From: Candidatus Saccharimonadota bacterium
GTDB lineage: Bacteria; Patescibacteriota; Saccharimonadia; Saccharimonadales; Saccharimonadaceae
Assembly: GCA_017548735.1 (NCBI GenBank)
Contig: JAFYZJ010000013.1
Location: 1-43,963, forward strand
Direction of reading: 5' to 3'
DNA length: 43,963 nucleotides
Made by a program: the position numbers and the translations under genes. Under the pieces are notes generated by a model that had not been told where the DNA came from, did not search any database, and saw nothing but the letters and a program-made list of their open reading frames with translations. This document shows positions 1,596 to 17,438 of this stretch, in pieces; within the stretch, counting starts at the first letter, position 1, and each line of letters begins with the position of its first letter.

Positions 1596-1600
1596 ATTGT

Positions 1601-2355: not shown

Positions 2356-2368
2356 ACGGACAAATAGG

Positions 2369-2397
2369 ATTATAGCACGAGCTGAAAAAATATGCAA
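2369..2397 (-). promoter_or_regulatory. promoter of tRNA-Gln
   Basis: On the minus strand: TTGCAT, a 17-nt spacer, then TATAAT (preceded by TGC). The -10 ends about 13 nt upstream of the tRNA 5' end. Confidence 0.55.
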
Positions 2398-2451
2398 AAT
2401 ATTGTATAATAGCGGCATCCACAAGAAGTTCTTTGAAAGGGGGTGGGTTAA

Positions 2452-3447: not shown

Positions 3448-3452
3448 GAAAT

Positions 3453-3481
3453 TGGCCGTAATTTGTTTTACGGCCATTTTT
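3453..3481 (+). terminator. intrinsic terminator
   Basis: TGGCCGTAA / TTACGGCCA stem followed by TTTTT. Confidence 0.65.
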
Positions 3482-3529
3482 CATGCTAAAATAAAGACAG
3501 TTTTTAAGCATAAACAATAAAGGAAAAGG

Positions 3530-5257
3530 GTGGAAAGATTTCAGCCATTAGAGAGCGTTGAGGATGTCGAGGAGTTTTACTCGGCGATTAAGCGCGAAAA
3601 AATGACTCATAAGCTCTCGCCAGAGCGCCCTTATTGTTATTGGACGATTGAGACTTACGATAAAAGCAACGGTATCCGCGGCGGCGGCGGCCTAGGCGTG
3701 CTCGCAGCAGATATGCGCCGTGTCGCCGAACAGCTTTCCGTGCCATTTGTGCTCGTCACCCCATTCTATCCATGGGAATCACATCAGCGTATGGAAGACA
3801 TGAAGCAGATTGATTTCCATACTGAGCAGCACTACCGAGATTATGGCTTTGAATTTATCGATACGGTCCGCATTAAGACTTCAACAACTGCTGTCGAGCT
3901 CGAGGTAATTGAAAAACAACTCGGCTCTTCCCGTTTCCTTTGCATCACTGAGCCGAATTTTGGTGAGCTATATTCCGGCGAATCCGGTTCCGATCATCGC
4001 CTCTATCAAGAGGTGGCGCTGGGTTTTGGTGGCTATCAAGCACTCAAGCTCGTCGGTTTGCGCCCAGCCGTCATTCAGCTTAACGAAGTCGCCACTTTCT
4101 TTGCCGCCGTAGCCCGTCTTGATGAGCTTGTGAGCTCCGGCATGGATTTCTATGAGGCAGTAGTCTATACCCGCAAGCACACGCTCTATACGAACCACAC
4201 GCTCGTGCAGGCTGCCGAGGCAAGCTTCAATTATTCCCAGTTCGAGCAGTACGTTTTCCCGAATATCAAGAGCGTCGCAGTCCGTCGCTGGCTCTCGGAT
4301 AAATTCACGAATGGCCGCATTCAACTCTCTACGCCGACCGTTGAGATTGCTGAGCTTCGCAGTGGCGTAAGCAAATTGCACGCACGCGTCGCGAATTACC
4401 ATGATATTAACGGCAATAAGATTAAGTTCAAATCTGTCACGAACGGTATTCATATGCGCACTTGGGTGCTTCCGGAAATCATGGAGTACTTCTACGATAA
4501 GAATATTCTCGATAAGTTCGATTTGCCACCAGAGGAAAAGCTCGAAGAAGCCGTAAATGCGGTTTCCGCTGCCGATATTCGCAAGCTAAAGCTCGCTGGC
4601 CGTAAAAAGCTCAACGAGATCCTCGCAAACCGCACCGATCAGTACGGTAAGCCTGTCCAAATCCCAGAAGAAGCATTACTTTTCGATTTCAAGCGCCGCT
4701 TCGTTGATTACAAGCGCCCATGGTTGCCATTTGAAAACCCGGAGCGCCTTGCCGAGATTCTCGAGCAGAATAATGCGCACTACATCCTTGCTGGCCGCGT
4801 CCATATGGGCGACTACCGCATGTTTGACCGTCTCATGAAGCTTCTTCACCTCATCGATAAGCATCCGGTTTTGCGTGAGCGCGTACATTATTTGCCAGAT
4901 TACGATGAAGAATTAGGCTTCGCACTATCTGTTGGCGCTAATAGCTCCATCAATACGCCGATTGTTGGCCTTGAGGCCTGCGGTACAAGCTGGATGAAGG
5001 ATATTGCCAACCTCGGTCTCCTCATTTCGACCCACGATGGCGGTGTCGCCGATATGCCTTCCGATAACTATCTCAGCATTAAGGGTAAGACTGAAGCCGA
5101 AGAATGCACCGAGCTTTATCGCCAGATGGAAGCCGCCGCTGCTGCATGGAGCAATGATTTTGATCTCGAATATTGGGTCCGCAAGGAATTAGTCGCTTAT
5201 CTTGCGATTATTTCTGGCTCCCGCATGATGAAAGATTATTTGAATTATCTCTTTTAG
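3530..5257 (+). CDS. glgP: alpha-glucan (glycogen/maltodextrin) phosphorylase, GT35 family, short form
   Basis: Motifs seen: GGGGLGVLAAD, TNGIHMRTW, and EACGTSWMK (the PLP-lysine motif, EASGTSxMK-like). GTG start. Confidence 0.8.
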   Translation: MERFQPLESVEDVEEFYSAIKREKMTHKLSPERPYCYWTIETYDKSNGIRGGGGLGVLAADMRRVAEQLSVPFVLVTPFYPWESHQRMEDMKQIDFHTEQHYRDYGFEFIDTVRIKTSTTAVELEVIEKQLGSSRFLCITEPNFGELYSGESGSDHRLYQEVALGFGGYQALKLVGLRPAVIQLNEVATFFAAVARLDELVSSGMDFYEAVVYTRKHTLYTNHTLVQAAEASFNYSQFEQYVFPNIKSVAVRRWLSDKFTNGRIQLSTPTVEIAELRSGVSKLHARVANYHDINGNKIKFKSVTNGIHMRTWVLPEIMEYFYDKNILDKFDLPPEEKLEEAVNAVSAADIRKLKLAGRKKLNEILANRTDQYGKPVQIPEEALLFDFKRRFVDYKRPWLPFENPERLAEILEQNNAHYILAGRVHMGDYRMFDRLMKLLHLIDKHPVLRERVHYLPDYDEELGFALSVGANSSINTPIVGLEACGTSWMKDIANLGLLISTHDGGVADMPSDNYLSIKGKTEAEECTELYRQMEAAAAAWSNDFDLEYWVRKELVAYLAIISGSRMMKDYLNYLF

Positions 5258-5309
5258 TATGCTATACTCTTGACAGAGTCCGTACAGGACTATTTTTAAT
5301 GGAGTAAAT

Positions 5310-5693
5310 ATGGCAACGAAAGTCACCAGAATCAAGGCAAAAGACGACGGTCCAAAGACCAAGTCTGAAGATGCCGAGAAAATTACTCGCAAAGTTAGCG
5401 TCAAGGCTAAGAATAGCGAGAGCAAAAAGACAAAAATCGCCGCTAAAAAGGCCGAGAAAGCTGCCGACAAAGACGCAAAGAAGTCTTTGAAGAAAGCTGA
5501 TGGCAAAGAAAAGAAAGTTGGCTACTTCCGTGGCGCTTTCCGCGAACTTCGCCAGGTCCGCTGGCCAAATCGCAAAGAAACTTGGAAGATGACCCTTTCG
5601 GTTATCATTTATGTCGTCATCCTCGCAGCCGCAATCATGCTGCTCGATGCGCTTCTACAATTAATCTTTAACCAACTCTTGGGAGGAAAATAA
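5310..5693 (+). CDS. secE: preprotein translocase subunit SecE with a Lys-rich N-terminal extension
   Basis: The C-terminal part, FRELRQVRWPNRKETWKMTLSVIIYVVILAAAIMLLD, is a typical SecE core plus TM helix. It lies immediately upstream of nusG. Confidence 0.9.
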   Translation: MATKVTRIKAKDDGPKTKSEDAEKITRKVSVKAKNSESKKTKIAAKKAEKAADKDAKKSLKKADGKEKKVGYFRGAFRELRQVRWPNRKETWKMTLSVIIYVVILAAAIMLLDALLQLIFNQLLGGK

Positions 5694-5696
5694 TCT

Positions 5697-6248
5697 ATGG
5701 CCGTTAACCGTTATGATGGTACGCGCGCTTGGTACGCTGTGAGCACCTACTCCGGCTACGAAGACAAGGTTGCTGACTCGATTCGCCAGCGCCTCGACAG
5801 TATCGATTTCGCCGACAAGATTTTCGACGTAATGGTACCAAAAGAAAAGCAAATTGATATCAAGAACGGCAAACGCCGTATCGTTGAGAAAAAGATTTTC
5901 CAGGGCTACGTGCTCGTCGAAATGAAGCTCTCCGATGCTACTTGGTATATTATCCGCAACACCCCAGGCGTTACCGGCTTCGTCGGTACTGGCACTCAGC
6001 CAACCCCAGTTTCCAAGAAGGAAATTGAGAAGATCAAGAAGCGCATGGGCGTCGATGATCCAAAGTTTACCGTCAACTACTCTGCTGGCGAGGTCGTCTC
6101 CGTTACCGATGGTCCATTCAAGGGCTTTGAAGGTACGATTTCCGAAATCGACACCAATAAGGGCAAACTCAAGGTTCTCGTCTCCATGTTTGGTCGCGAA
6201 ACCGCTGTCGAGCTTGATGCTCTCCAGGTCAAGAAGATTGACGACTAA
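5697..6248 (+). CDS. nusG: transcription termination/antitermination factor NusG
   Basis: NGN domain motifs (WYAVSTYSGYE, FQGYVLVEM, PGVTGFVG) and a KOW motif (GEVVSVTDGPFKGFEGTI). Confidence 0.95.
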   Translation: MAVNRYDGTRAWYAVSTYSGYEDKVADSIRQRLDSIDFADKIFDVMVPKEKQIDIKNGKRRIVEKKIFQGYVLVEMKLSDATWYIIRNTPGVTGFVGTGTQPTPVSKKEIEKIKKRMGVDDPKFTVNYSAGEVVSVTDGPFKGFEGTISEIDTNKGKLKVLVSMFGRETAVELDALQVKKIDD

Positions 6249-6262
6249 TTAGTCTACCAAAG

Positions 6263-6289
6263 AGCCACCACTCGGTTGGTGGCTTTTTG
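6263..6289 (+). terminator. intrinsic terminator after nusG
   Basis: AGCCACCA / TTGGTGGCT stem followed by TTTTT. Confidence 0.7.
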
Positions 6290-6295
6290 ATGTCC

Positions 6296-6324
6296 TTGAC
6301 TTTTCCGATTGGGGGTGTTATAAT
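6296..6324 (+). promoter_or_regulatory. sigma-70 promoter
   Basis: TTGACT (6296-6301), a 17-nt spacer, then TATAAT (6319-6324). Confidence 0.6.
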
Positions 6325-6354
6325 ATTACTATCTTGTACCTTAGGAGGTTCCGT

Positions 6355-6834
6355 ATGAAACTATATATCTTTAATACCGAGTCGTTATCTTCGCAATACA
6401 GCGAAGCTAGCGACAAGATTATGAAAAAATCGATTGATCTTATCTTAGAAACACTCGGGAATATCAATGATGACGGCGAAACTTTCATTGTTGTAAAAGG
6501 AAAATATAGGCTCGGGTCAGATTTATCTGCGGCCCCAACCGAGTTGTTCTGTACTTATCTCACGAACTACAGAGATACTAGTACTAGCAAAACAAGAAGG
6601 CTCGCGAGGAGACTTGAAGAATTCTTCGCGAATGGTGACAAAAATACAATTCGTATTGCCCCGAATTTCGACGAAGGCGAAGACGTCAGACTCGAAGATC
6701 CATTAGTTTTATTAGATATAACAGTATACTATGAAACTAATCAGAAAGCCGACAAGTTGGGTGGAGTGAGTATCGTTGATTCTATCTATATACAACAGAA
6801 AATCAAGGAAGCTTTCCGCGAAAAGTACGACTAA
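6355..6834 (+). CDS. hypothetical protein (159 aa)
   Basis: ATG at 6355 follows an AGGAGG RBS, with a promoter upstream and a terminator downstream. No recognisable motif. Confidence 0.65.
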   Translation: MKLYIFNTESLSSQYSEASDKIMKKSIDLILETLGNINDDGETFIVVKGKYRLGSDLSAAPTELFCTYLTNYRDTSTSKTRRLARRLEEFFANGDKNTIRIAPNFDEGEDVRLEDPLVLLDITVYYETNQKADKLGGVSIVDSIYIQQKIKEAFREKYD

Positions 6835-6851
6835 CCCCCGTTATCAACAGA

Positions 6852-6876
6852 AAACCCGCTCAATTTGAGCGGGTTT
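6852..6876. terminator. bidirectional intrinsic terminator between convergent genes
   Basis: AAACCCGCTCA / TGAGCGGGTTT stem flanked by an A-run and a T-run. Confidence 0.65.
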
Positions 6877-6883
6877 AATGTTT

Positions 6884-8008
6884 TTACGGTAAACAGTTGC
6901 CGTTGGCGGCAATATTGCGATTGTAATACCTCTCGTCATCGGTAACTTCCTTGATGACTTCAAGATAATCAGGCACAATCAGCTTGTCATCGGGAGATAC
7001 AAATTCTACCTCGAGAATTGCAAACTCGTTAGAGGACGGATAAACATCTATCTCGAGATACTGACCCGAATCGCGCTGCATAATGCAGAATCTGTTCTTG
7101 TGAATCGAGTTCAGCCCCGGGATCGCATTCATCAGTTCGCTGACATATTCTTCGCGACTAATACGACGTTCGAGCTCGATTCTGACGGCCTTGTCGCTCG
7201 TACTACGCTTGATGGTCTTGGTGAAGATAAAGTCTCCGCCGTATGCACGCTGGCGGACACGAACTTCGTCATCAAATAAGTCACCCTTAAGATAGGTCTG
7301 CATAATCTCGCCTTCCTGGCAATTCGGCAGCGCGCGCAGATAGTCGAGATCGGGCATCTTGATCAGATACTTGCGCTCTATTTCATAGGGCATCGGCTCG
7401 CCAAGCATTACAGATATTTGCTTCAACAACGTCTTCAACTTCGTGTCGAGATCGCCTTCGTTCTTAATGATGCGCAGGTGAGGATGGCCAACCCAGGCAT
7501 TCTGCGTCTTCACGTCAAGCTTAACAGCCTCTTCGGGCGTCTCTGAGCGCGCCTCGTTATTCTGCAACGTGTAACACTCAATTGCGCCATCGGCTGTCGT
7601 GACAAGATGAAATACGGCATCATACTCGGCGACTGCGGCAGACACTACCCCGCGTCCAACACGGGTTACGACCTGTTCAAACTCGCGTGGGCTAACATAG
7701 GCCTTATTGTCATATAGGCCGCGGTCGCAAACAATCATGATTTTTTCGTTCTCCATCATGAGTGCCGCCTGCATTATGCGTTCTTCCTTTGCGAGCTGGG
7801 TCTTAAGAATCATCTCCTGAAAATACAGCGGATCCTTGAATGCCGTCGGAATTATTCCCGACGTAATCAGTTCCGTGGCCGCTTCGTTGACTATGAGGAC
7901 CTTCCAGCCGAGCTTCGTATAGAAGTTCGAAATCCAGCTCAATGCCGTTGTTTTACCGCCGCAAGGACCGCCCGTAAGTACAAACTTACAGATTTTTTTG
8001 TTCAGCAA
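6884..8008 (-). CDS. fusion protein: P-loop NTPase (NadR/AAA_28-like nucleoside kinase fold) plus C-terminal CYTH triphosphate-tunnel domain
   Basis: Walker A is GGPCGGKTT near the N-terminus. The C-terminal half begins with YEIERKYL, the ExExK signature of CYTH domains. I place the start at TTG 8008, 6 nt after AGGAGGTG. The longer ORF to 8122 has no RBS. Confidence 0.7.
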   Translation of the reverse strand: MLNKKICKFVLTGGPCGGKTTALSWISNFYTKLGWKVLIVNEAATELITSGIIPTAFKDPLYFQEMILKTQLAKEERIMQAALMMENEKIMIVCDRGLYDNKAYVSPREFEQVVTRVGRGVVSAAVAEYDAVFHLVTTADGAIECYTLQNNEARSETPEEAVKLDVKTQNAWVGHPHLRIIKNEGDLDTKLKTLLKQISVMLGEPMPYEIERKYLIKMPDLDYLRALPNCQEGEIMQTYLKGDLFDDEVRVRQRAYGGDFIFTKTIKRSTSDKAVRIELERRISREEYVSELMNAIPGLNSIHKNRFCIMQRDSGQYLEIDVYPSSNEFAILEVEFVSPDDKLIVPDYLEVIKEVTDDERYYNRNIAANGNCLP

Positions 8009-8113
8009 ATAAATCACCTCCTGTAACCGTTTTAAAGTACATTGGACAATCAATTTCCAATATCTGGATATAGTATAGCATAATTTGCAAAAATATGTTA
8101 TAATTATAGAGAT

Positions 8114-8140
8114 ACTCCTCAAGAGGAGTTTTGTTATTTT
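8114..8140 (+). promoter_or_regulatory. terminator-like hairpin in the leader of the 8179 operon (possible attenuator)
   Basis: ACTCCT-CAAG-AGGAGT stem followed by TTTTGTTATTTT. It sits between a TATAAT at about 8094-8099 and the RBS of the 8179 gene. Confidence 0.3.
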
Positions 8141-8178
8141 ACAATTTTGATTTTACATATGGAAGGAAGTGATGCAAC

Positions 8179-8991
8179 ATGAAGATTCGAGGTATCGAAG
8201 TCGACCCAAACGACTTCTTTGCACAAACGAAGAGGTTTAGGGTTTACCTTGGTAATTCGGACAAAGATGGACCTGTTATTCTGAAAGTCGCCAAGACTTT
8301 TGACGATAACGACGTCCTCAACGAAGATGCGGCGACATTTACTCGCTTAGCTGCGAACAGTCAGGAAATAGACGAGTACGAAACCAGCCTTGGTGGCGGG
8401 AATCGTTCTCGCTTTGACTTACTGTTTGCCAGCCTTTTGTCGACGTTTGTCGAAGCGTCTCAAGGTGACCGAAGGATCAATGTTTACCGCGTGCCAGATA
8501 CGAAGCTCAGCAAATTGCTTCCTCTTTCGAAGCTAAAGGCTGATTACGAAATCGACGCACGCAGCTGTGTCTGGATGATAGGGCGAATCCTGAAGTTTTA
8601 TATCTTGTTCGAGAAGGACAAAATGGATGGAAAAGAGACCGTCGCCAGATACCCGGATTTCTACCCAGAGGATTTCCTCATCGGGCCAGAACGCCACCGC
8701 GTAATCTATTACAACTATTCTGGCGGAGAAGACGACTCGATTGCCGACGGTCATATCAAGGCAATTGCGAAGTTTTTTCTCGAATGGATAGTCGTTAATG
8801 ACGAAGCCGAGCAGAGATTATACAATCTGCTCAAAGATTTTTCAGAACATGGTCGCAGTGAGTTTTACGATGCACACTCCAATCTCTATGCGCTCGCTAG
8901 TGAGCTCTGGGGACGTGGAGTGTATTATCCGTTTACTTACCGCGTCCGCGGAACAATCGCCTGGCAGAAACAGAAAGAGGAGGAAAAATAA
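8179..8991 (+). CDS. hypothetical protein, possibly a protein-kinase-like fold (degenerate)
   Basis: 270 aa with a GGAAGGAAG RBS. VILKVAK resembles a beta3 VAIK lysine. RYPDFYPEDFLIG resembles the HGDxHPxNhh catalytic loop of APH/choline-kinase-type kinases, with substitutions. The stop overlaps the next start (TAATG). Confidence 0.7.
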   Translation: MKIRGIEVDPNDFFAQTKRFRVYLGNSDKDGPVILKVAKTFDDNDVLNEDAATFTRLAANSQEIDEYETSLGGGNRSRFDLLFASLLSTFVEASQGDRRINVYRVPDTKLSKLLPLSKLKADYEIDARSCVWMIGRILKFYILFEKDKMDGKETVARYPDFYPEDFLIGPERHRVIYYNYSGGEDDSIADGHIKAIAKFFLEWIVVNDEAEQRLYNLLKDFSEHGRSEFYDAHSNLYALASELWGRGVYYPFTYRVRGTIAWQKQKEEEK

Positions 8992-10094
8992 TGGGCGACA
9001 CAACATTTTCTAAAAGTGACTACTTAAAGACACGCGAGGATTTAGGCATTACGGACGATAGAGGCGTTACTGCAATGGCAGAGCTAGAAGCCCGCGAATC
9101 CGGTATGCTAAATCCAATTGTTGACCCGGCCATCAATCCGATTCGCCGGTCAATGATAAGGCTAGTAGCCGAAAACAAGCATTGGGTTGCGAAGCTCGGC
9201 TGTCCGATGGATATCGAGGTGAGCTGCGATACTACTGCCTCAATGCAGGACGAAGTCGATAATCAAATGAGGGTTTTGCCCGATATGTATGAGGCAATCG
9301 CTAAAGTTCTTCAGGGATATGACCCGCAGCTTTGCTTGGGTATTTTCGGAGACTGTGTCGACGACTTCGTTTTATGCAGACCGCAATACGAGATGGAGGC
9401 GCCAAAGATTGTCAGATATCTGAATGTAATGGCCCCGCAGCGAGGCGGAGGCGGTAATGGCGGCGAAGATCCTCAGTATTCCATGCTGGCACGCGCTTAT
9501 CTTACAGACGCATATACAAACAACATTGGGCTGAAGGGCTACCATTTCATCATTACCGACGAGCCTTGCCATCACGATATTAGCGAAAGACAAATCAGGC
9601 GTATCTTTGGCGAAAATATCTTTGATAATGAGCTCAAAGAAATGAAGGGCGCAATAAAGTCTATCTACGGCATCGTTAGCGACCTCAAGAGCAAAGTTCA
9701 CGCGTTCGCGCTGATCGTAGACGGTCATTATCATTCAGATGAAGCATACGAATCCTACTGCAATCTTTATGGCAGAAAATCCGTAATCCGCATTGATTCG
9801 ACCGAGATGCTGCCGACGATAATATCGGCGATTATCGGGCTTACCGAAGGTACTGTCGAGATAACAGAGCTGAAAGAACGTTTCGGAGACGATATGGATT
9901 CTGAACTGATCAAGCAGCTCTCCAATATTGAGATCGGCGCACAGATGAAGCTGAGACATGCTATGAAGCGCCCAGTACCAAAGGCCGGTGACATCTTCGC
10001 AAAGAAGGGTGACCTCTGGCCGATTCAGCCGGGTGAACTCTCGGAAGATGAAGAAGCTGAGGAAACGGTAGCTGACATAATCAAGTATCTTTGA
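8991..10094 (+). CDS. von Willebrand factor A (vWA) domain protein with a MIDAS-like motif
   Basis: DIEVSCDTTASM is a DxTxS variant of the DxSxS MIDAS motif. A glycine-rich GGGGNGGED loop follows, then HFIITDEP, which is a TDG-like MIDAS Asp. Extra N- and C-terminal regions are present. The start overlaps the upstream stop by 1 nt. Confidence 0.7.
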   Translation: MGDTTFSKSDYLKTREDLGITDDRGVTAMAELEARESGMLNPIVDPAINPIRRSMIRLVAENKHWVAKLGCPMDIEVSCDTTASMQDEVDNQMRVLPDMYEAIAKVLQGYDPQLCLGIFGDCVDDFVLCRPQYEMEAPKIVRYLNVMAPQRGGGGNGGEDPQYSMLARAYLTDAYTNNIGLKGYHFIITDEPCHHDISERQIRRIFGENIFDNELKEMKGAIKSIYGIVSDLKSKVHAFALIVDGHYHSDEAYESYCNLYGRKSVIRIDSTEMLPTIISAIIGLTEGTVEITELKERFGDDMDSELIKQLSNIEIGAQMKLRHAMKRPVPKAGDIFAKKGDLWPIQPGELSEDEEAEETVADIIKYL

Positions 10095-10116
10095 TACTCG
10101 TTAGGAGGCGAAGGCT

Positions 10117-11367
10117 ATGCTCAATGAAGTCAGTATCGTTACGGACCTCGGTCCGGGTGACGGCGGTAAAGGCAAGGTCGTAAATGTTTTCTGCAACGAA
10201 GATAACATTTCATTAGTCATCAAGCGTGGCGGAGCACAAGGTTCGCACGGTGTTCGCTGTTCCAACGGTGAAAAATTTAATTTTTCCCAGTGGGGCTGTG
10301 GCACTTTCGAAGCAATTCCGACATTTCTGTCGCCACAGTTCATCGTTATGCCTGTTGGCCTAATTAATGAGTCTGAGGCACTGGAGCGCAAAGGAATTAT
10401 TAATCCTTTCCGGCTTCTCAGCTGCGACCCAGATTGTATCTGCGCCACCCCTTTCCACTGGATATCCTCACGATTAAGTGAGCTTCTCCGCGGAAAGAAC
10501 CCGCGCGGCACAATCGGTACTGGCGTTGGCCAGGCCTACCGCATGTTTCAGCAATCTGGAGACGAAATGACAATTCGCGCCCGCGAATTGACTGACCACA
10601 ATAAGATTGCTGATAAACTTTTCGCACAACTCAAATTTTACCGAGCTTGCTATCAATACAAGCCCGAAAATTATCTGGACGAAGACGCGGAACACGTCGC
10701 GGAATGCTTCGATTTGCTTAATGATGACGGCTTCTTGGACTACAACATCAATGAATTTGAGAAAGTAGGCCAAATGCTAAGCATTACATCCTTATCTGAA
10801 GCAATCAACAATCACGACGGTTCTGCTGTAATAGAATGTTCGCACGGTGTTTTAACTGACGCAGTAGAGGGCTTTAAGCCGCACACTAGCGCCATTCGCA
10901 CCCTACCGAAATTCACAGAAGAGATGATGAGAAATGCCGGTTTTACCGGTCGAATTAGGCATTATGCCGTACACCGCGCCTATGAAATTAGGCATGGTGC
11001 TGGCCCAATGTCGACATACGACCCCGAGTTTACCAAACATATGCTTCCTGACAGCCATAAAGCGAATAATCGCTGGCAAGGCGAAGTACGTGCCGGTCCT
11101 CTCGACATCAACCTCATCCAGCATGCCCTCGCGGCATGCAAAGACACGAGTTTCGATGGGTTGTGCCTGACTTGGTTTGACCAGATTCTCGAAATGGGAA
11201 GCTGGAAAATCAACGACGACATTATCCCGATCGACTCCAAACTAACCGGAATAGACCTTTGGCGTTTCGTTGAGAATATCATCGATTCGCGCATTGGTTT
11301 ATCTCTAGAATTACTCTCAATTGGCCCAACAGAGCGCGACAGATTACGCGCCCAAGATTTCATTTAG
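10117..11367 (+). CDS. divergent adenylosuccinate synthetase (PurA)-family protein
   Basis: Colinear with PurA motifs: GPGDGGKGK vs QWGDEGKGK; GGAQGSHG vs GGHNAGH; GTIGTGVGQAY vs GTTGRGIGPAY; YEIRHGAGPMSTYDPEF vs TRVGxGPFPTE. The GTTGRxRRxGW block is replaced by NNRWQGEVRAGPLD. AGGAGG RBS. Confidence 0.75.
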   Translation: MLNEVSIVTDLGPGDGGKGKVVNVFCNEDNISLVIKRGGAQGSHGVRCSNGEKFNFSQWGCGTFEAIPTFLSPQFIVMPVGLINESEALERKGIINPFRLLSCDPDCICATPFHWISSRLSELLRGKNPRGTIGTGVGQAYRMFQQSGDEMTIRARELTDHNKIADKLFAQLKFYRACYQYKPENYLDEDAEHVAECFDLLNDDGFLDYNINEFEKVGQMLSITSLSEAINNHDGSAVIECSHGVLTDAVEGFKPHTSAIRTLPKFTEEMMRNAGFTGRIRHYAVHRAYEIRHGAGPMSTYDPEFTKHMLPDSHKANNRWQGEVRAGPLDINLIQHALAACKDTSFDGLCLTWFDQILEMGSWKINDDIIPIDSKLTGIDLWRFVENIIDSRIGLSLELLSIGPTERDRLRAQDFI

Positions 11368-11378
11368 GAGGTATAGCC

Positions 11379-12635
11379 ATGAGTGAAGAGATTAAGAACA
11401 CAACAGCAGAAGAATCCGTAGTAGAAGTAGTTGCAGCAAACCCTGCAACACCCGATGCTCCGGTCGTAGATGCTACACCGGCACCCGCAATTCCAGCACC
11501 GACACCCACTGCAGCAAGCCCTGTCGAACAGAAGCTTACAGAGTATGGCGCAAACGGTGCCACAATTCAGAAAATTCTCGATCTCGGCGTCGAGTCTGTC
11601 GAAGATTTGTCGACCTTAACCGATAGCGATCTCGTAGACGCTGGCATGAAGCTTGTCAAAGCGCGCAAACTTATCGGCGACCTGAAGGCCGAAGCTAAGC
11701 CCGCAGCGACAACACCGACCGCCGCTTCTGGTTTTGTTTTCCCTAGCGCAATAAATTCAATTCTTCCGTCCGTCCCTACAGACGAAGTCTGGATGAACAG
11801 CCTGAAAACCGGTGGCGTATTGAGAATCGATGATTCTACATATATTGCCGCAATTAAGACAGCATTAGCAGCAAAGGTAGGCTTGTATAATGCGCCTCAG
11901 TTGCTCATAGACGAGATGGAGAGACATGCGAAGGATATTGGCGAGCCTGTAGATGCTGACGTATTCTATAAGCTCGTAAAGATGCTGACAAGACACGATT
12001 ATTCCGACATTTTCGCAGCCATCGATGGCTGCTCTGGAGCGTTCATCAACGACAAGCGTCGTAAAGAATTCCTCCAGGAAATCGATAATCACTTCTTGCC
12101 GGCAATCGCAGCTAGCTACCGCGCCCTCGATAGTTGGTATGAGGGATATAAGGATAGCTTTTCTGATCAAATGATGTTGATGGCCTTTATCGCCGGTGGA
12201 GCGAATTCGGGAATTGGCAGTATGATACAGACGCCGGACACTTCCGTAGTTCGCGCAGCAAGAGATACGTTCGTCGACGAGATTAATAAGACTTTTGCTG
12301 GTTGCGGCGTACAGTCCGCTTCCGCCTTAGCGCTCATCGCAAGAGATATTCTCGGGCAGTTTAACGATAATCGCCTTCCGAAATTGGTTGGCGCCGAAAA
12401 CCGCGAACTCATGCTCAAGAAGCTTGGCCTGGACGTTTCTAGTTCCTACGCGCGCCTCGAGCAGATTCTCTCGCAGTATGTTCTCGCATTTGTGAAGCTG
12501 GATGAAGCAACACCCGATACTGAAGCACGCTATTTGGCAGCGCTTTGGCAGCTCGGTTCTCAGATTGACTGGGAGAGCCTTAATATCAGAAGAAATAAAG
12601 GCTCGAAGAGTATCACAGGCAGTGATATTCTGTAA
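11379..12635 (+). CDS. hypothetical protein: Pro/Ala/Thr-rich N-terminus, HhH-like segment, large alpha-helical domain of unknown function
   Basis: 418 aa with a GGAGG RBS 11 nt after the upstream stop. ATIQKILDLGVESVEDL...DAGMKLVKARKLIGDLK looks like a tandem helix-hairpin-helix. The rest has no recognisable motif. Confidence 0.7.
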   Translation: MSEEIKNTTAEESVVEVVAANPATPDAPVVDATPAPAIPAPTPTAASPVEQKLTEYGANGATIQKILDLGVESVEDLSTLTDSDLVDAGMKLVKARKLIGDLKAEAKPAATTPTAASGFVFPSAINSILPSVPTDEVWMNSLKTGGVLRIDDSTYIAAIKTALAAKVGLYNAPQLLIDEMERHAKDIGEPVDADVFYKLVKMLTRHDYSDIFAAIDGCSGAFINDKRRKEFLQEIDNHFLPAIAASYRALDSWYEGYKDSFSDQMMLMAFIAGGANSGIGSMIQTPDTSVVRAARDTFVDEINKTFAGCGVQSASALALIARDILGQFNDNRLPKLVGAENRELMLKKLGLDVSSSYARLEQILSQYVLAFVKLDEATPDTEARYLAALWQLGSQIDWESLNIRRNKGSKSITGSDIL

Positions 12636-12664
12636 TTTCCAGAGTAAAATCAAAACATAAAAGA

Positions 12665-12690
12665 AGACCCCCAAGTACGGGGGTCTTTTT
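12665..12690. terminator. bidirectional intrinsic terminator
   Basis: AGACCCCC / GGGGGTCT stem flanked by an A-run and a T-run, between convergent genes. Confidence 0.7.
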
Positions 12691-12699
12691 CTTGCCCTT

Positions 12700-13860
12700 T
12701 TATAGCCAAACGTATTTAGCAAAGAGCATTGTGGCGATTTTACGGTATTCATCGTCGTAGAACGGACAATCGCCGTCCATTTCCTTAGGAATGCCATTCC
12801 CTTTCCAATTGTAGAATCTAGCGAATCCCTTGTGGAGCAGACGATACAGCAAAAGATCACTCTCAAGCCTTTCAATGCAGCGACGACGCGCAAACTCGTC
12901 GATATCCTTATATCTAGCAACCACGGCGCGTCGCGCAATCTCCATGCGCTCCTGCGCCTTCGGACCACCCAACCAAACACTATCATAGTAGATATGAATG
13001 CCTTCCGGGCTGCCGGGATAGTATTTCCCGACTACGAGTAAATCGTCGAGCAGATACGGATCGATGTCAGAGTTTACGCTGGCGTAACCCTTTATCAGCG
13101 AACCGTTCACCAACACGACTTTTTCCGGCTCAAGCGAAGACGCGATTTCTTCCAGCCTAGGCATTATGATGTGCAGATTATCAGAGAACGGTCCTTCCAG
13201 CTTCGCGCATGGCGTGAGAGCCACGAATGACTGCCCTTTCTCGTCAAGCCACTTCTTACGGCTTTCTGAGACGTAGAGCGGTTCCTGGCGTGTACGATTG
13301 GGCAAATAGCACAGTATCTCGCGAATTTTCTCAATCCGGTCTTTTTGCTTGATTAGTTTCTGTTCGACGCAGTAGGTCATCACATCTTTGAAACTCTGCA
13401 ACATGATGTAGTTATTTCTGCGACTAGCCCCCTCAATGATTGTCTGGAGCTCATACGCCGAAATGTAGCTATTCTTGAGCAGCCAAGGAGTCAAGTGTGC
13501 AGACTTCGATACTCGCTGTAAACCTTCTTCCGGTCGCGCATCGACTTCGAAACAGTCGCCAAAATGGAAATTTTCCCGCACGTCATAGACATACAAGAGT
13601 TCATACCATGCGTCACGGTATACATCTATAAATTCCCTGGGCGCCGCTTCGAGCGTACTAAGTGGAAGATACAGCGCAAGGCGCCTCGCTTCCGGTTTTC
13701 TCAATAGTTCGGTGCAGGCTTTGTAATAATCGACTCTCTTCGACCCTGAAGGGTCTTTGAGATAATCACAAATCCTCATCGCAGCCGACTTCCTTGGACA
13801 GGAATCCGGCTCGGCCTCTTCGTAACGTGTTTCGATATACGGCTTTAGATAGTTAACCAT
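12700..13860 (-). CDS. Pol-beta-superfamily nucleotidyltransferase domain protein with a large N-terminal domain of unknown function
   Basis: VNGSLIKGYASVNSDIDPYL matches the hG[GS]-x9-13-D-h-D minimal NTase motif. I place the start at ATG 13860 (MVNYLKP) after AGGGGGA. The longer ORF to 14127 would overlap rplK and its promoter. Confidence 0.7.
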   Translation of the reverse strand: MVNYLKPYIETRYEEAEPDSCPRKSAAMRICDYLKDPSGSKRVDYYKACTELLRKPEARRLALYLPLSTLEAAPREFIDVYRDAWYELLYVYDVRENFHFGDCFEVDARPEEGLQRVSKSAHLTPWLLKNSYISAYELQTIIEGASRRNNYIMLQSFKDVMTYCVEQKLIKQKDRIEKIREILCYLPNRTRQEPLYVSESRKKWLDEKGQSFVALTPCAKLEGPFSDNLHIIMPRLEEIASSLEPEKVVLVNGSLIKGYASVNSDIDPYLLDDLLVVGKYYPGSPEGIHIYYDSVWLGGPKAQERMEIARRAVVARYKDIDEFARRRCIERLESDLLLYRLLHKGFARFYNWKGNGIPKEMDGDCPFYDDEYRKIATMLFAKYVWL

Positions 13861-13941
13861 AAAATCCCCCTTTCTTGTAATGTGCAATAGTAATGTTATT
13901 ATGCCATATTTTGCTATTTTTTTCAATGGGGCACCTTCTCC

Positions 13942-13970
13942 TTGCAAAAAACGCCAAAATCCGGTATAAT
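13942..13970 (+). promoter_or_regulatory. consensus sigma-70 promoter of rplK
   Basis: TTGCAA (13942-13947), a 17-nt spacer, then TATAAT (13965-13970). A leader of about 70 nt follows, with ACGAT/ATCGT and GCCGG/CCGGC hairpins. Confidence 0.65.
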
Positions 13971-14047
13971 AGACCGCGTTACGCACGATTATTAATCGTA
14001 ATCGCCGGTGAAGCGCTTCAAAAACCGGCAAAAGGAAAATTAATAAC

Positions 14048-14473
14048 ATGGCAAAACAGGTTATTGGCAACTTGAAGTTGCGCATCCCTGGTGGTAAGGC
14101 GACGGCCGGTCCTCCAGTAGGTAGCACACTCGGTCAGTGGGGTCTCAATATGATGGACTTCATTAACCCATTCAACGAAGCCACCAAAGAATACATGGGC
14201 AAGAATGTGATTGTTCACATCGCTGTCTATGATGATCGCACTTTCGATTGGAAGTGCCTTGGCCAGCCAGTTGACGATTTGATCCGCGAAAAGATCAAGC
14301 TCGAAAAAGGCAGCGGTCGCCCAAACACTGAGAAAGTTGGTAAGATTACCATGGCTCAGATCAAGGAAATCGCAGAAGTCAAGAAAGGTCAGCTCAACGC
14401 TATCGACGAAGCTGGCGCTTGCAAGATTATTGCCGGCACCGCACGCTCGATGGGCGTCGAAGTTGTCGAATAA
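14048..14473 (+). CDS. rplK: 50S ribosomal protein L11
   Basis: LKLRIPGGKATAGPPVGSTLGQWGLNMMDF and full-length colinearity with L11. Confidence 0.95.
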   Translation: MAKQVIGNLKLRIPGGKATAGPPVGSTLGQWGLNMMDFINPFNEATKEYMGKNVIVHIAVYDDRTFDWKCLGQPVDDLIREKIKLEKGSGRPNTEKVGKITMAQIKEIAEVKKGQLNAIDEAGACKIIAGTARSMGVEVVE

Positions 14474-14489
14474 GACACTCTTCAAGAAG

Positions 14490-14517
14490 GCACTCCTTTA
14501 CATAGGGGTGCTTTTTT
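14490..14517 (+). terminator. intrinsic terminator after rplK
   Basis: GCACTCC / GGGGTGC stem (one G-U pair) followed by TTTTTT. Confidence 0.55.
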
Positions 14518-14574
14518 GTTATAATATGCCAATCTGAATCGTCTACGAAATTCTTAGGAAAAGAGGTGGTTTTC

Positions 14575-15258
14575 ATGAAAGGTAGATTGATTGGAGCTCT
14601 TTGGATAATTATAGCTTTGGCTATCTTTTACTTTGGGCTCAATGGCGAATGGTTCCCATTCTTCTTCTGTCTCTGCCTGATGATGTGTTTGGCCGAAATC
14701 TCTGCGATTTCCGACCTCAAGCCATACCAGGTTAAACCGAGTGCATGTAAACCACACGACGCATGGCGATTCGAATACACGATCGTCTACTTCGCTGCGA
14801 TTTTCTGCATTCTCTTAAAGAAAGAAGAGCTTCTCCTTATCATTATCGTCTGTTCATTATCCGATACAGGTGCTTTTACGTTCGGAAAGCTTTTCGGCAA
14901 ACACAAGGCGTGGTTCACGTCAGCAATTTCACCCAACAAGACCATTGAAGGATATATTGGCGGCATCGTTTTTACCCTGCTCGCAATACCGGTTTGTTTC
15001 TTACTAAAGATTGCAATCACACCGGCTTTAATTATCTATTTCCTCCTTGGTGGCTTTGCGGCAGAAATTGGTGACCTACTCGGCTCCGCTACTAAGCGTC
15101 AGCTCCAGGTCAAAGATAGCGGCGACGGGATTCGGAATATGCCCGTCTTTAAGCTAATCGAGTATCCAATCCGTGGTCACGGTGGTTATCTCGATCGAAT
15201 GGACTCGATATCTTTAAATATCGTTCTATTCACCATTATCATGGTGCCGTGGAAGTAA
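14575..15258 (+). CDS. cdsA: phosphatidate cytidylyltransferase (CDP-diglyceride synthase)
   Basis: Multi-TM protein with SDTGAFTFGKLFGKHK...ISPNKTIEGYIGG, the CdsA signature SPxKTxEG. ATG at 14575 follows GAGGTGG. Confidence 0.85.
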   Translation: MKGRLIGALWIIIALAIFYFGLNGEWFPFFFCLCLMMCLAEISAISDLKPYQVKPSACKPHDAWRFEYTIVYFAAIFCILLKKEELLLIIIVCSLSDTGAFTFGKLFGKHKAWFTSAISPNKTIEGYIGGIVFTLLAIPVCFLLKIAITPALIIYFLLGGFAAEIGDLLGSATKRQLQVKDSGDGIRNMPVFKLIEYPIRGHGGYLDRMDSISLNIVLFTIIMVPWK

Positions 15259-15281
15259 TCTACGGCACTTTTTCGTGGCCC

Positions 15282-15310
15282 TTGACTATCAGAGGTAATT
15301 TTGATATACT
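15282..15310 (+). promoter_or_regulatory. sigma-70 promoter of rplA
   Basis: TTGACT (15282-15287), a 17-nt spacer, then TATACT (15305-15310). A leader of about 55 nt containing GGGAGGCGAAUAGCC follows. Confidence 0.5.
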
Positions 15311-15370
15311 AGAACAAGTTAAATTTAAGGTCGGGAGGCGAATAGCCGTTTGTACCGCGAAAGGAATTTC

Positions 15371-16300
15371 ATGGCAACTAAGAAAGATGCCGAAAAACTT
15401 GAGACTCCAGAGGTTGAAACCCCTGTAGTCGAAGAAGCTCCAGTTGAAACTGAAGCTCCAGCTGAAGAAGAAAAATTCGCAAAAGCTGGTAAAAAATCTA
15501 AGAAGCACGTAGAAGAGGTAAAGGCTGAAGAAGAGCGCCAGGCTCGCAAGGCTGAGAAAGCCGCTGAACCAGAAAAGAAAGCTGGTCCAAAGCCAGTTAC
15601 TCGCACTCGCCTCGAACGCCGTGGCAAGAACTACCGCAAGGCAGTCGAAAAGCTCGAAAAAGGCAAGATTTACAACCTTACTGACGCTATCAAGCTCGCT
15701 ATCGAGACTAGCCCAGTAAAGTTTGACGCTACTGTCGAGATGCATTTCCGCCTCGGCGTCGATCCACGTCAGGCCGATCAGAACATCCGCGCTACGGTTA
15801 CCCTTCCAGCTGGTACCGGTAAGACCGTCCGCGTCGCTGTCTTCGCTCCACTCGATGCCGCTAAGGCTGCAAAGGCTGCTGGTGCAGATATCGCCGAAGA
15901 CGAAGAATTCACCAAGCGCCTCGACAAAGAACAGCTCGATTTCGACGTTCTTATCTCTACCCCACAGTACATGCCAAAGCTCGGTAAGTACGCTCGCTTG
16001 CTCGGTCCAAAGGGCCTCATGCCAAATCCAAAGGCTGGTACCGTTACCACCGATATCGAGAAGGCTGTTAAGGAAGCTAAGGCCGGTAAGATCGAGTACC
16101 GCGTCGACAAACAAGCTATCGTTCACGTTGGTCTCGGTAAGGTTAGCTTCGGTGCTGACAAGATTGCCGAAAACATCAACGCTTTCATCGAGAGCTTGAA
16201 GAGCCAGAAGCCTGCATCCATCAAGGGTCAGTACGTGAAGTCCGTCTTCATCAGCACCACGATGGGTCCAAGCATCCAGGTCGAAAATATCTACAACTAA
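15371..16300 (+). CDS. rplA: 50S ribosomal protein L1 with an N-terminal Glu/Lys-rich extension of about 80 aa
   Basis: The core, from KNYRKAVEKLEKGKIYNLTDAIKL onward, is typical L1 (FDATVEMHFRLGVDPRQADQNIRATVTLP). No in-frame alternative start lies between 15371 and the core. Confidence 0.9.
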   Translation: MATKKDAEKLETPEVETPVVEEAPVETEAPAEEEKFAKAGKKSKKHVEEVKAEEERQARKAEKAAEPEKKAGPKPVTRTRLERRGKNYRKAVEKLEKGKIYNLTDAIKLAIETSPVKFDATVEMHFRLGVDPRQADQNIRATVTLPAGTGKTVRVAVFAPLDAAKAAKAAGADIAEDEEFTKRLDKEQLDFDVLISTPQYMPKLGKYARLLGPKGLMPNPKAGTVTTDIEKAVKEAKAGKIEYRVDKQAIVHVGLGKVSFGADKIAENINAFIESLKSQKPASIKGQYVKSVFISTTMGPSIQVENIYN

Positions 16301-16317
16301 TCTAGATGCATCAAAAA

Positions 16318-16342
16318 AGTTCCGGTTTGACCGGAACTTTTT
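16318..16342. terminator. bidirectional intrinsic terminator
   Basis: AGTTCCGG / CCGGAACT stem flanked by A- and T-runs. Confidence 0.7.
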
Positions 16343-16352
16343 GTTTGGTTAA

Positions 16353-17438
16353 CTACTTGAGTTTGATGTAGCTATCTTTGTTAGTGAGCCACTTTTCAAT
16401 CTCAGTGATAGTCTTGGCCTCCCAATCAGCTGACCATTTGCTGGTACTATGAATCGATTGTGGATGGTCGTAGTACACGTTGCGACCGCCGTCGGAGCCG
16501 ATACCGGAAATGATTGGCGTACCGAGGAGATTGTTATCCTTGAAGGCTGGATTAACTCTACCGATAGTAATGGAACCGAGAATTACGAATCCATCCTCGA
16601 CGCCATCTTCGATAAATTCAGGCGCACTCTGATGGTCGACACCAGTAACAGCGGCGCTGACGGTGAGCGTACTGTAGTTGCCCTCAAAGGTGCTACTGCT
16701 AGCATCGCCCATGTTGAACTGGTCGTAGTTGAAGCTCAAGTAGGTGAGCGTATCAGGAACCTTGAGGGCATAATCGTAGCCATCAAGATAGATATAGCGC
16801 GTGTTAGCTGGAGCGGCGATTGGCGTATCAGTTGGCTGATCTGCCGTACCTGGGGTAGCCGGCGTCTTAGTGCCTTCAACCTTCGAAACAACCTCGCGAC
16901 CGAGGAACTTAGTCGTACCATCAAATAGGAATAGATATGCAGCGGCACCACAGCCAGCGATGGCGAGTAATGCAAAGATGATCGTTGCTACTTTCCAGCC
17001 TGCGCCGGTCTTTGCTTTTGGTTCTTCTACGGAATCAATCTTCATATATGCTTTGTTCTCCTCTTTGTCTTTCCAGTCTTCTTCTTCAGCCTTAGCATCT
17101 TCTTCGATGGCCTCTTCGGCAGCTTCTTCTGCCTTTTCGGCTTCAATTTTCTTTGCTTCGGCAATCTTCTTCTCTTCAATCGGGTCCTCCGGGTCGACTT
17201 CCGGCTCAATGTCTGCTGGATCGACAGGAACTTCTATATCATCGTCAAAGACATCAATTTTCTTAGTAGACTTCACCTCGACGCGGCCTTCATCTTCATC
17301 AAGCGCCTCAATAGCGTCTTCGAGGTCTTCGCGTGCGGTTTTTTCTTCGCGAGCATCATCTTGCCCACCATGATTGTGCAATTCGTTTGCGTCGTGGCCA
17401 CCCTGGCTTCGGACAAAACGATTTTCTTCATCGCTCAT
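16353..17438 (-). CDS. membrane-anchored protein: acidic N-terminal region, single TM helix, C-terminal extracytoplasmic domain
   Basis: 361 aa. The N-terminal roughly 145 aa are Glu/Asp-rich. The TM helix is WKVATIIFALLAIAGCGAAAYLFLF. No catalytic motif recognised. Confidence 0.7.
   Translation of the reverse strand: MSDEENRFVRSQGGHDANELHNHGGQDDAREEKTAREDLEDAIEALDEDEGRVEVKSTKKIDVFDDDIEVPVDPADIEPEVDPEDPIEEKKIAEAKKIEAEKAEEAAEEAIEEDAKAEEEDWKDKEENKAYMKIDSVEEPKAKTGAGWKVATIIFALLAIAGCGAAAYLFLFDGTTKFLGREVVSKVEGTKTPATPGTADQPTDTPIAAPANTRYIYLDGYDYALKVPDTLTYLSFNYDQFNMGDASSSTFEGNYSTLTVSAAVTGVDHQSAPEFIEDGVEDGFVILGSITIGRVNPAFKDNNLLGTPIISGIGSDGGRNVYYDHPQSIHSTSKWSADWEAKTITEIEKWLTNKDSYIKLK

Follow-up and report, generated by a model that had tools for sequence, protein, structure and literature searches.

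The closest described counterparts of the locus analysed here are the genomic islands and hot spots that lie between core genes and, for its individual genes, the modules that pair a von Willebrand factor A (vWA) protein with a kinase, the adenylosuccinate synthetase PurA, its phage relative PurZ, and a trio of genes carried by Bixzunavirus mycobacteriophages. The locus is a block of seven genes, labelled g1 to g7 in genome order, between nusG and rplK in a contig stretch of 43,963 nt (contig JAFYZJ010000013.1; hereafter the window) from a ruminant-gut, Nanosyncoccus-like member of Candidatus Saccharibacteria. With genomic islands the block shares a lineage-specific presence between two conserved genes where the cargo differs from species to species, mosaic alleles exchanged by recombination, and self-contained modules with their own promoter and terminator. 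It differs from them in lacking an integrase or transposase gene, att repeats, a tRNA target and a deviating composition, in a site that falls inside the normally contiguous secE-nusG-rplKA string, and in a largest component that is common in its own phylum and not foreign. The TerY-P triad, which Anantharaman, Iyer and Aravind are said to have described in 2012, reportedly consists of vWA, kinase and PP2C phosphatase. These modules resemble the block in that a predicted vWA gene with a motif of the metal ion-dependent adhesion site (MIDAS) type (g4) stands beside, and is translationally coupled with, a kinase-fold gene (g3), a pair that also occurs as a fusion (P0296). A related module of vWA and Ser/Thr kinase is the Deinococcus DRA0331-0334 operon, described in a bioRxiv report. 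Unlike these modules, the block has a g3 without catalytic aspartates and a constant third partner, a PurA-like ligase, that is foreign to them, and neither a PP2C nor an FHA domain turned up in the block or in those cassette neighbourhoods that were inspected. Taken as a whole, our explanation, a species-level composite insertion at a recurrent site together with a role in nucleotide-linked ligation, has in our judgement somewhat better than an even chance of being right. Its structural and evolutionary part is well supported, namely that three self-contained units entered a permissive and reused spacer by recombination.

The comparison with related genomes carries the case for an insertion. 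NusG of the window is 78-98% identical to that of 80 species-level Candidatus Saccharibacteria genomes, most of them ruminant-gut metagenome-assembled genomes (MAGs) and several named Nanosyncoccus; these were compared within +/-10 kb around nusG, and 74 of the 80 loci contain both nusG and rplK. A sequence-only reading of the window had regarded the block as accessory and had proposed synteny at this junction as the check, which supports it: none of the 74 species has the block there, and in them the gap between the two genes has a median of 135 bp (<230 bp in 54) and a maximum of 2.7 kb, compared with 7.8 kb, the largest, in the window. Alignment of the window with the closest species (L001, L003, L004, L007 and L028; identity of 94-98% for NusG and of about 72-80% for the glgP-nusG DNA) stops at 6247-6288 and restarts at 13935-13978, and in L003 about 100 bp stand in place of the block. 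Because the block is missing from the junction in all 74 related species, the closest among them, it is a lineage-specific insertion, gained in the lineage of the window's species, and not an ancient arrangement of the clade.

The nusG terminator and the rplK promoter exactly bracket the homology breakpoints. The intrinsic terminator of nusG, rightly noticed in the sequence-only reading, is a GCCACCA/TGGTGGC hairpin with a 7-bp GC-rich stem followed by a T-run (6265-6289, forward strand), and an equivalent hairpin and T-run, judged by eye, follow nusG in the block-free L003. The rplK promoter, TTGCAA-17-TATAAT (13942-13970, forward strand), had been called perfect; TTGCAA is not a perfect -35 element, and the site agrees with the consensus at 10 of 12 positions. 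This promoter and the conserved leader of about 75 nt behind it (13971-14047, forward strand) align with the block-free junctions of L003 and L007. Terminator, promoter and leader thus appear to be ancestral features that were not made by the insertion. Since nusG and rplK would already have been separate transcription units, DNA inserted between the terminator of the one and the promoter of the other would disturb neither gene. Other lineages have used the same spacer: in 20 of the 74 species the gap exceeds 360 bp and holds other, mostly unrelated genes, the 25 open reading frames (ORFs) found there falling into 21 sequence clusters of small membrane or coiled-coil proteins, with a single 571-aa membrane protein in the gap of L001. 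In gut Saccharibacteria, variable genes have repeatedly been inserted at the nusG-rplK junction. In 11 species rplK lies on the strand opposite to nusG (L009, L013, L023, L025, L039, L048, L049, L051, L060, L064 and L078), at about 10.6-13.7 kb in most of those loci. The premise of an inviolate secE-nusG-rplK-rplA string, from which the accessory nature of the block had been argued, therefore fails in this clade, given the pre-existing terminator and promoter, the other genes at the junction, the inverted rplK, the gene that usually parts rplK from rplA and the lack of rplJL-rpoBC behind rplA.

Direct reading of the sequence places the limits of the block at about 6289-13934 and agrees with the earlier description of seven genes in four transcription units of alternating orientation, all seven intact within 7.6 kb. 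The first unit is g1 (6355-6834, forward strand; 159 aa), preceded by a putative TTGACT-17-TATAAT promoter (6296-6324, forward strand) and an AGGAGG ribosome-binding site. It converges with g2 (6884-8008, reverse strand; 374 aa), for which the TTG at 8008 behind a GGAGG was picked as the start, and between them lies a hairpin (6846-6882, with an 11-bp stem at 6852-6876) that is likely a bidirectional terminator. The five-gene cassette opens with g3 (8179-8991, forward strand; 270 aa), whose stop overlaps the start of g4 (8991-10094, forward strand; 367 aa), and continues with g5 (10117-11367, forward strand; 416 aa) and g6 (11379-12635, forward strand; 418 aa). It ends with the convergent g7 (12700-13860, reverse strand; 386 aa), separated from g6 by a second likely bidirectional terminator, a hairpin that lies between an A-run and a T-run (12660-12694). 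The strong hairpins at both convergent pairs agree with the terminators that had been postulated between units. The longest ORF of g7, from an upstream GTG, overlaps rplK; the start preceded by a ribosome-binding site is the ATG at 13860, behind GGGGGA, and g7 likely has its own promoter at 13926-13898 (reverse strand). The block is thus a composite of g1, of g2, which combines P-loop and CYTH parts, and of the cassette g3-g7.

MAGs such as the source genome can contain chimeric contigs, and the block could in principle be a product of assembly or binning. The same seven genes, however, stand at the same junction in six independent assemblies from differing samples and assemblers (L081, L082, L089, L090, L091 and L099), one of which, L089, is a 601-kb contig with the block at nusG-rplK. 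The block is present in every conspecific assembly examined, and composition is continuous across both borders. Because conspecific assemblies from independent samples share the site, the block is not an assembly artefact or chimera, an explanation to which we give practically no chance.

Composition and the signatures of mobile elements were considered next to the synteny. The GC content of the block is 47.2%, that of the rest of the window 48.0%; its tetranucleotide distance is 0.0203, where windows of equal size have a mean of 0.0156 (standard deviation 0.0030) and 11% reach at least this distance; and the distance in relative synonymous codon usage of the block genes is not different (p=0.42). 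The compositional deviation that the sequence-only reading had suggested looking for in 6290-13941 is therefore essentially lacking, a small deficit in GC at third codon positions (GC3) being the sole difference. That reading had also named the finding that would point to an ancient lineage-specific arrangement, namely the same genes at this junction in all relatives with native-like composition: the composition is indeed native, whereas the relatives are without the block at this site. Its statement that no integrase, transposase, tRNA or flanking direct repeat accompanies the block is upheld by our searches. None of the seven proteins has an integrase, recombinase or transposase domain (Pfam, NCBIfam, PHROGs, PADLOC), there is no tRNA gene in or beside the block, the nearest being tRNA-Gln at 2281-2355, about 4 kb away, and a search of 5200-16500 for direct or inverted repeats, including the degenerate att-like repeats that had been suspected at the borders, gave scattered imperfect matches at chance level and none at the borders. 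The recurring 'CCTTGAC...TATAAT' strings (6294, 13940, 14495 and 15280) were considered as att repeats and rejected, as they are just the promoter consensus of the lineage. Among the classical signs of an integrative island, then, the block shows variable presence among close relatives and lacks the integrase, the repeats, the tRNA and the deviating composition. The term accessory cargo is apt in so far as the block is a lineage-specific insertion absent from all 74 relatives; it is less so in that the block is not one foreign piece, having native composition and being a composite of three units.

Comparison within the species suggests how such a composite could be remodelled. The flanking proteins of the conspecific contigs L089 and L090 are 97-100% identical to those of the window, and the amino acid identities of the block proteins g1 to g7 are 33, 84, 84, 87, 94, 95 and 92% for L089 and 91, 96, 97, 86, 95, 74 and 98% for L090; the value of 33% for g1 of L089 stands between flanks of 99-100%. 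Identity profiles of the conspecific contigs in steps of 250 bp show sharply bounded tracts, and the synonymous divergence (dS) is elevated in the same tracts, to 0.56-0.81 for g2-g4 in L089 and to 0.72 for g6 in L090, compared with 0.05-0.28 for most flanking genes (0.32 for g361). The ratio of nonsynonymous to synonymous divergence (dN/dS) is 0.06-0.38 for all block genes, which indicates that they are functional. The divergent tracts are best read as imported alleles of functional genes, a signature of homologous recombination, and the three units of the block evolve independently. Two tracts elsewhere in the window are also hypervariable: a 331-aa protein encoded at 2452-3447 is just 53% identical between conspecific contigs that are otherwise 95-99% identical, with saturated dS, and a second tract, at about 18000-19500 near thioredoxin genes, has a DNA identity of about 64-79%.

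We therefore propose, from the pattern of the comparisons, that g1, g2 and g3-g7, each with its own promoter and terminator, would have entered between the nusG terminator and the rplK promoter, a recurrent landing place, and that both their arrival and their continuing remodelling most likely proceeded by homologous recombination with other Saccharibacteria DNA, with the conserved neighbour genes acting as anchors. A site-specific mobile element seems less likely than homologous recombination. The secE-nusG-rplKA region of gut Saccharibacteria would then be a set of independent transcription units whose spacers serve as landing sites without mobile-element machinery, which bears on how the reduced, recombining genomes of the candidate phyla radiation gain and shuffle accessory functions, and on synteny comparisons that are anchored at this locus.

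The cassette g3-g7 is found well beyond this junction. Its gene order and orientation are kept at other sites in L085, L093, L105, L106, L004/L001 and L063/L073. In L085 it is bounded by tRNA-Leu and small ORFs and, at its opposite end, by DUF6088, secG and uvrC; in L106 it lies between SpoU/pentapeptide genes and a Fic gene, with two extra genes within; in L004 and L001 it is found about 2 kb beyond tRNA-Gln, upstream of glgP; and in L063 and L073 it is downstream of rplK. L106 and L065 are two contigs of one MAG, with a 45-bp nusG-rplK junction on L065 and the cassette on L106. Divergence of the cassette is incongruent with species relatedness, L004 having 96% identity in NusG and 47% in g4, and L063 79% and 59%, respectively. 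The cassette belongs to the gene pool of Saccharibacteria, in many of which it occurs at differing sites. A second copy near tRNA-Gln in the window's species, as in L004/L001, was sought and none was found within 10 kb upstream of the window.

These distributions bear on two other accounts of the block. One is that the arrangement is old and vertically inherited and was lost at the junction in all sampled relatives; the native-like composition, the presence of the block in all conspecific assemblies and the occurrence of the cassette within 10 kb of nusG in L001, L004, L054, L063 and L073 fit such a history. It would, however, require many independent and precise losses, as 74 of 74 related species are without the block at the junction; the nearest species, L004 and L001, hold a far more divergent cassette (35-47% identity) elsewhere, and homologues of g1 and g2 are missing from all 80 related loci. 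We consider it highly improbable. The other account takes the block for what is left of an integrative element (for instance a prophage fragment, a satellite or a defence island) that came in by site-specific recombination and later lost its integrase and att sites. It would explain the variable presence and the mosaic alleles, the tRNA-Gln and tRNA-Leu genes near the cassettes of L004/L001 and L085, and the presence of the cassette core in real phages, described below. It would also accommodate L093, an IMG/VR entry (IMGVR_UViG_3300028454_000294; 1134-4404 and 7192-12911) in which the full cassette lies a few kb from a gene for a ParB-N6/N4 DNA methylase and one for a GH25-CW_7-LysM lysozyme. 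Set against this, the block contains no integrase, transposase, recombinase or structural phage gene by Pfam, PHROGs and NCBIfam, it has no border repeats, no tRNA at its site and a native composition, and the insertions of other species at the junction are mostly unrelated small genes and not elements. Nor do the non-cassette ORFs of L093, in the 16 kb examined, include hallmark phage genes by PHROGs; L093 may be a Saccharibacteria phage, an island or a miscall. On balance we regard an element remnant as unlikely, and prefer the insertion of separate units by recombination.

As for the proteins, g1, g4, g6 and g7 have no direct match in PADLOC, Pfam, NCBIfam or PHROGs, and g1, the hypervariable one, belongs to no recognisable family. 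The N-terminus of g2 matches Pfam AAA_28, of NadR-like kinases and NTPases (1.1e-19, residues 46-226), and its C-terminal half matches phrog_6660 (2.2e-15) and the PDB entries 2fbl and 3typ (about 3-5e-5), deposited as 'hypothetical protein NE1496' and 'uncharacterized protein'. Both entries we take to be CYTH proteins, a label that no tool assigned, and g2 is accordingly labelled as a putative P-loop/CYTH (triphosphate-tunnel) enzyme acting on nucleotide phosphates.

The first cassette protein, g3, matches the 'kinase' family phrog_3043 (6.4e-5) and, by BLASTP (3e-9), gp106 of Mycobacterium phage Tonenili, annotated as a Ser/Thr kinase. It has no Pfam kinase match of its own, and its family profile finds nothing significant in PDB; one member of the g3 alignment, which we infer to be Tonenili gp106, does match Pfam Pkinase (8.5e-9). 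When aligned with the phage kinase, g3 of Saccharibacteria is without the Asp of the HRD type, and the Asp of the DFG motif is replaced by Asn. It is probably a divergent, catalytically dead protein of the kinase fold, its homology to that fold being transitive only. A physical partnership with g4 is supported by P0296 (679 aa), a natural fusion of g3-like and g4-like parts in one ORF, which could also be a frameshift artefact, as the g3 stop and the g4 start overlap. AlphaFold2 models were made for g4 and g6 and searched with Foldseek. That of g4 (predicted local distance difference test, pLDDT, 70; predicted template modelling score, pTM, 0.74) finds integrin I and von Willebrand factor A domains in PDB (E 3e-6, probability 1.00) and also viral VWFA proteins, whereas the g4 family profile finds nothing significant in PDB. 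Residues D80, T81, T82 and S84 of its MIDAS-like motif, D80-T-T-x-S84, are invariant, and the model thus predicts g4 to be a vWA-fold protein with a MIDAS-like metal-site motif. Its family comprises 582 representatives at the 50% identity level. Two further features of the vWA proteins were noticed, an N-terminus M-G-x-x-[TVA]-[FW]-x-x-x-x-Y common to Saccharibacteria and to Mycobacterium and Vibrio phages (8991-9030 in g4), and a C-terminus that is usually an aromatic residue (or Arg) followed by Leu (10080-10094). The thought that the Met-Gly end supplies an N-terminal amine as substrate was set aside as speculation: the motif is found in 8 of 8 aligned proteins, is absent in the distant P0320 and P0353, and is internal in P0296.

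In g6 a low-complexity N-terminus is followed by a helix-hairpin-helix (HhH) region at about residues 48-105 and an all-alpha C-terminal domain. Two homologues match Pfam HHH_5; the model (pLDDT 65) gives a local Foldseek match, the only one, to the N-terminal HhH of RAD51/RadA, and no fold match for the C-terminal domain. The C-terminal signature of g7, G253-S254...S264-D265-x-D267, is of the Pol-beta type, for which the general motif is hG[GS]-x9-13-Dh[DE]h in a palm domain, and is invariant in 34 homologues, whose weak Pfam matches are to the MTPAP-like palm (8 of 34, best 0.0033), NTP_transf_2 (4 of 34) and Polbeta (1 of 34), and a search of PDB with the family profile gave no match; g7 is a probable nucleotidyltransferase.

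The most informative member of the cassette is g5, a member of the PurA superfamily of ligases with an apparently altered substrate pocket. It matches Pfam Adenylsucc_synt (PF00709, 3e-27), PurA in PDB (6e-13) and phrog_1211 (1.5e-34), and falls far below the NCBIfam cut-offs for purA (62.3 against 402 bits for NF002223, 60.1 against 395.55 for TIGR00184). Residues of g5 and its relatives were mapped on those of Escherichia coli PurA through a distant alignment, in which single positions are uncertain. The P-loop G12-D13-x-G15-K16-G17 and H41 are kept in all cassette and phage homologues, and D333 in all relatives except the Vibrio phage enzyme, which has Asn. Where PurA has its aspartate ligands T301, R303 and R305, these enzymes share an x-Q-G motif (N-R-W-Q-G in Saccharibacteria), and of the ligands of the 5'-phosphate of inosine monophosphate (IMP), R143 is lost throughout and T129 everywhere except in the Vibrio phage enzyme. 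At T301, R303, R305, T129 and R143, g5 itself has Q, a gap, V, I and S, losses common to the vWA-linked clade, and the guanine-specificity residue K331 is W (H in Tonenili) and V273 is H. With PurA, then, g5 shares its fold and family signature, the catalytic Asp and His and the GDxGKG P-loop, and it differs in the aspartate and IMP 5'-phosphate residues, in the guanine lysine and in scoring below the equivalog cut-offs; it probably keeps the catalytic chemistry with a changed amine and perhaps nucleotide substrate. With PurZ of the phage pathway to 2-aminoadenine (dZ) it shares its best phage family, phrog_1211 being named after PurZ, a match that implies family membership only. Unlike that pathway, the block has no datZ (HD dATPase), mazZ (MazG-like) or purB, no HD or MazG domain being found in it by Pfam, and g5 is without aspartate ligands and always paired with vWA.

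A plainer reading of the same data is that g3-g7 serve housekeeping purine salvage, with g5 as the adenylosuccinate synthetase on the way from IMP to AMP in a parasite without de novo purine synthesis. The Pfam match, the retained D13, K16 and H41, and a cassette that is widespread in Saccharibacteria and under purifying selection would suit it. The cassette, however, has no purB, and the scores of 60-62 bits and the lost aspartate and IMP ligands, with W in place of K331, speak against it; moreover, vWA and kinase-like partners always accompany g5, lytic phages carry it, and its alleles are exchanged and 45-60% divergent between close species. Housekeeping salvage is in our view quite unlikely, and we favour a ligase of altered specificity.

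The carriage of this core by phages came to light by way of g5 and of profile comparisons; neither g4 nor g6 found a match in phage genomes by tblastn. g5 matches 232 phage records, of which 201 are from Mycobacterium phages, the best being the 'PurA-like' genes of Bixzunavirus at about 30% identity. In Tonenili the order is kinase (gp106), hypothetical protein (gp105) and PurA-like protein (gp104); gp106 is the homologue of g3, and gp105 that of g4 (hhalign, 97% probability, E 1.6e-11). The trio of these cluster C mycobacteriophages thus has three homologous genes in the order and orientation of g3-g5. It differs in a kinase with an extra N-terminal DnaJ-like region that Pfam Pkinase recognises, in having no recognisable g6 or g7 beside it, and in identities of just 23-30%; a literature search found no reported function for it. 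In Vibrio phages of about 190 kb a g4 homologue lies 250 bp upstream of an 'adenylosuccinate synthase', with one 60-aa ORF between them, and the vWA protein of phiKT1024 aligns with g4 at 95.5% probability (hhalign, E 1.4e-8). The third group is represented by the IMG/VR phage-like contig L094 (507-10571)/L095 (IMGVR_UViG_3300042731_008311), which carries the kinase-like/vWA/PurA-like trio behind a phosphoribosyltransferase-domain protein, a Pol-beta nucleotidyltransferase and three uncharacterised proteins, and has an HNH endonuclease and strong matches to phrog_1703 and phrog_624 further along; its PurA-like protein matches the full Pfam model (4e-37). The nucleotidyltransferase and two large ORFs upstream of this trio were tried as homologues of g7 and g6 and showed no significant similarity. 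The kinase-like gene accompanies the vWA/PurA-like pair in two of the three phage groups, those of Mycobacterium and of uncultured phages. Of the distant vWA homologues, P0353 and P0345 are directly upstream of a PurA-like gene and one member of the short class is not. In phiKT1024 (L096, 110753-121382) the pair is found among genes for anaerobic ribonucleotide reductase, NADAR, an exonuclease and TROVE (Ro60-like), a neighbourhood of nucleotide and RNA metabolism.

Carriage of the core by unrelated large lytic phages makes a role in conflict or takeover likelier than housekeeping purine synthesis. Our best guess, held with low confidence, is that the cassette performs nucleotide-linked ligation in such a role. 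g5 would keep the phosphoryl-transfer machinery, activate a purine-like carbonyl with a nucleoside triphosphate (NTP) and couple it to an amine other than aspartate; the ligation could be controlled by, or occur in complex with, the vWA (g4) and kinase-like (g3) proteins, to which the Saccharibacteria version would add a DNA-binding HhH protein (g6) and a nucleotidyltransferase (g7). A ligation system used in parasite-host or phage-host conflict, as opposed to housekeeping AMP synthesis, is suggested by the constant pairing of vWA and PurA-like genes, the changed pocket, the presumably dead kinase that also occurs fused to vWA, the HhH and nucleotidyltransferase genes, the phage carriage, the mobility and the exchange of alleles. 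A bolder version, to which we allow a rather slim chance, is that the trio is a previously unrecognised nucleotide conflict or takeover system whose ligase, having lost its aspartate pocket, would attach a purine nucleotide activated by NTP to a different amine, perhaps a protein amine that its obligate vWA partner provides. The product would then be a modified nucleotide or a protein-nucleotide conjugate. Large lytic phages of Mycobacterium and Vibrio, as well as uncultured ones, and epibiotic Saccharibacteria would all use the system, which in Saccharibacteria would have gained the HhH and nucleotidyltransferase genes and would move between chromosomal hot spots such as nusG-rplK. A literature search for PurA-like/vWA/kinase modules and their roles in defence found no description of the module. 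Two kinds of parasite, a lineage of obligate bacterial epibionts and large phages of three unrelated groups (Mycobacterium, Vibrio and uncultured), thus share a conserved and unstudied combination of a vWA protein and a PurA-like ligase without an aspartate site, usually with a dead kinase. This raises the biochemical question of what a PurA-type enzyme ligates once aspartate binding is lost.

Several observations weigh against our explanation. On the structural side, the recombination route is read from the pattern, and no donor or intermediate arrangement was found; GC3 of the block genes is slightly low (0.514 against 0.563, p=0.013). Mosaic tracts are likewise seen elsewhere in the window (2500-3500 and 18000-19500), which means that recombination is genome-wide in the population and not special to the nusG-rplK site. 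The L004/L001 and L085 cassettes are no more than about 2 kb away from tRNA genes, and the cassette-bearing L093, with its ParB-methylase and GH25 lysozyme, is catalogued as viral in IMG/VR; both observations would allow for an origin on an element. On the functional side, the proposal rests on residue patterns from a distant alignment, one medium-confidence model and gene neighbourhood; the PADLOC-DB v2 defence models gave 0 families for the seven proteins at E<=0.01, and the protein upstream of the Vibrio phage vWA has no detectable likeness to g3.

The remaining genes around the block show further departures from the usual order. On the left flank, secE (5310-5693) and nusG (5697-6248), both on the forward strand, are confirmed by Pfam SecE and NusG matches of the identical genes of L081. 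Directly 5' of secE is a gene resembling glycogen/starch phosphorylase (glgP-like, 3530-5257, forward strand), a linkage kept in most of the 80 related loci and thus an unusual but stable neighbour. On the right flank, the rplK leader is strongly conserved in L003 and L007 (GTTACGCACGATTATTAATCGTAAT...CCGGTGAAGCGCTTCAA...CCGGCA) and could be a candidate site of autoregulation by a ribosomal protein; an Rfam scan returned tRNAs only, with no match for the leader, whose predicted fold is no better than that of shuffled sequence (z = -0.7). Between rplK (14048-14473) and rplA (15371-16300), both on the forward strand, lies a cdsA-like gene (14575-15258, forward strand; Pfam CTP_transf_1, 1.6e-29), which is a second, independent interruption of the cluster; within 14474-15370 it is bracketed by similar promoter-like sites (14497-14525 and 15282-15310). 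In the related loci rplK and rplA are usually parted by a gene of 700-1000 bp, often cdsA-like and at times duplicated, the cdsA-like gene being absent in L003 and L004 and present in one or two copies in some others. In L013 the entire rplK-cdsA-cdsA-rplA segment is inverted, so that the neighbourhood appears prone to rearrangement. Finally, 3' of rplA an ORF of 361 aa on the opposite strand, followed by rpmG and trx genes, stands instead of rplJL-rpoBC.

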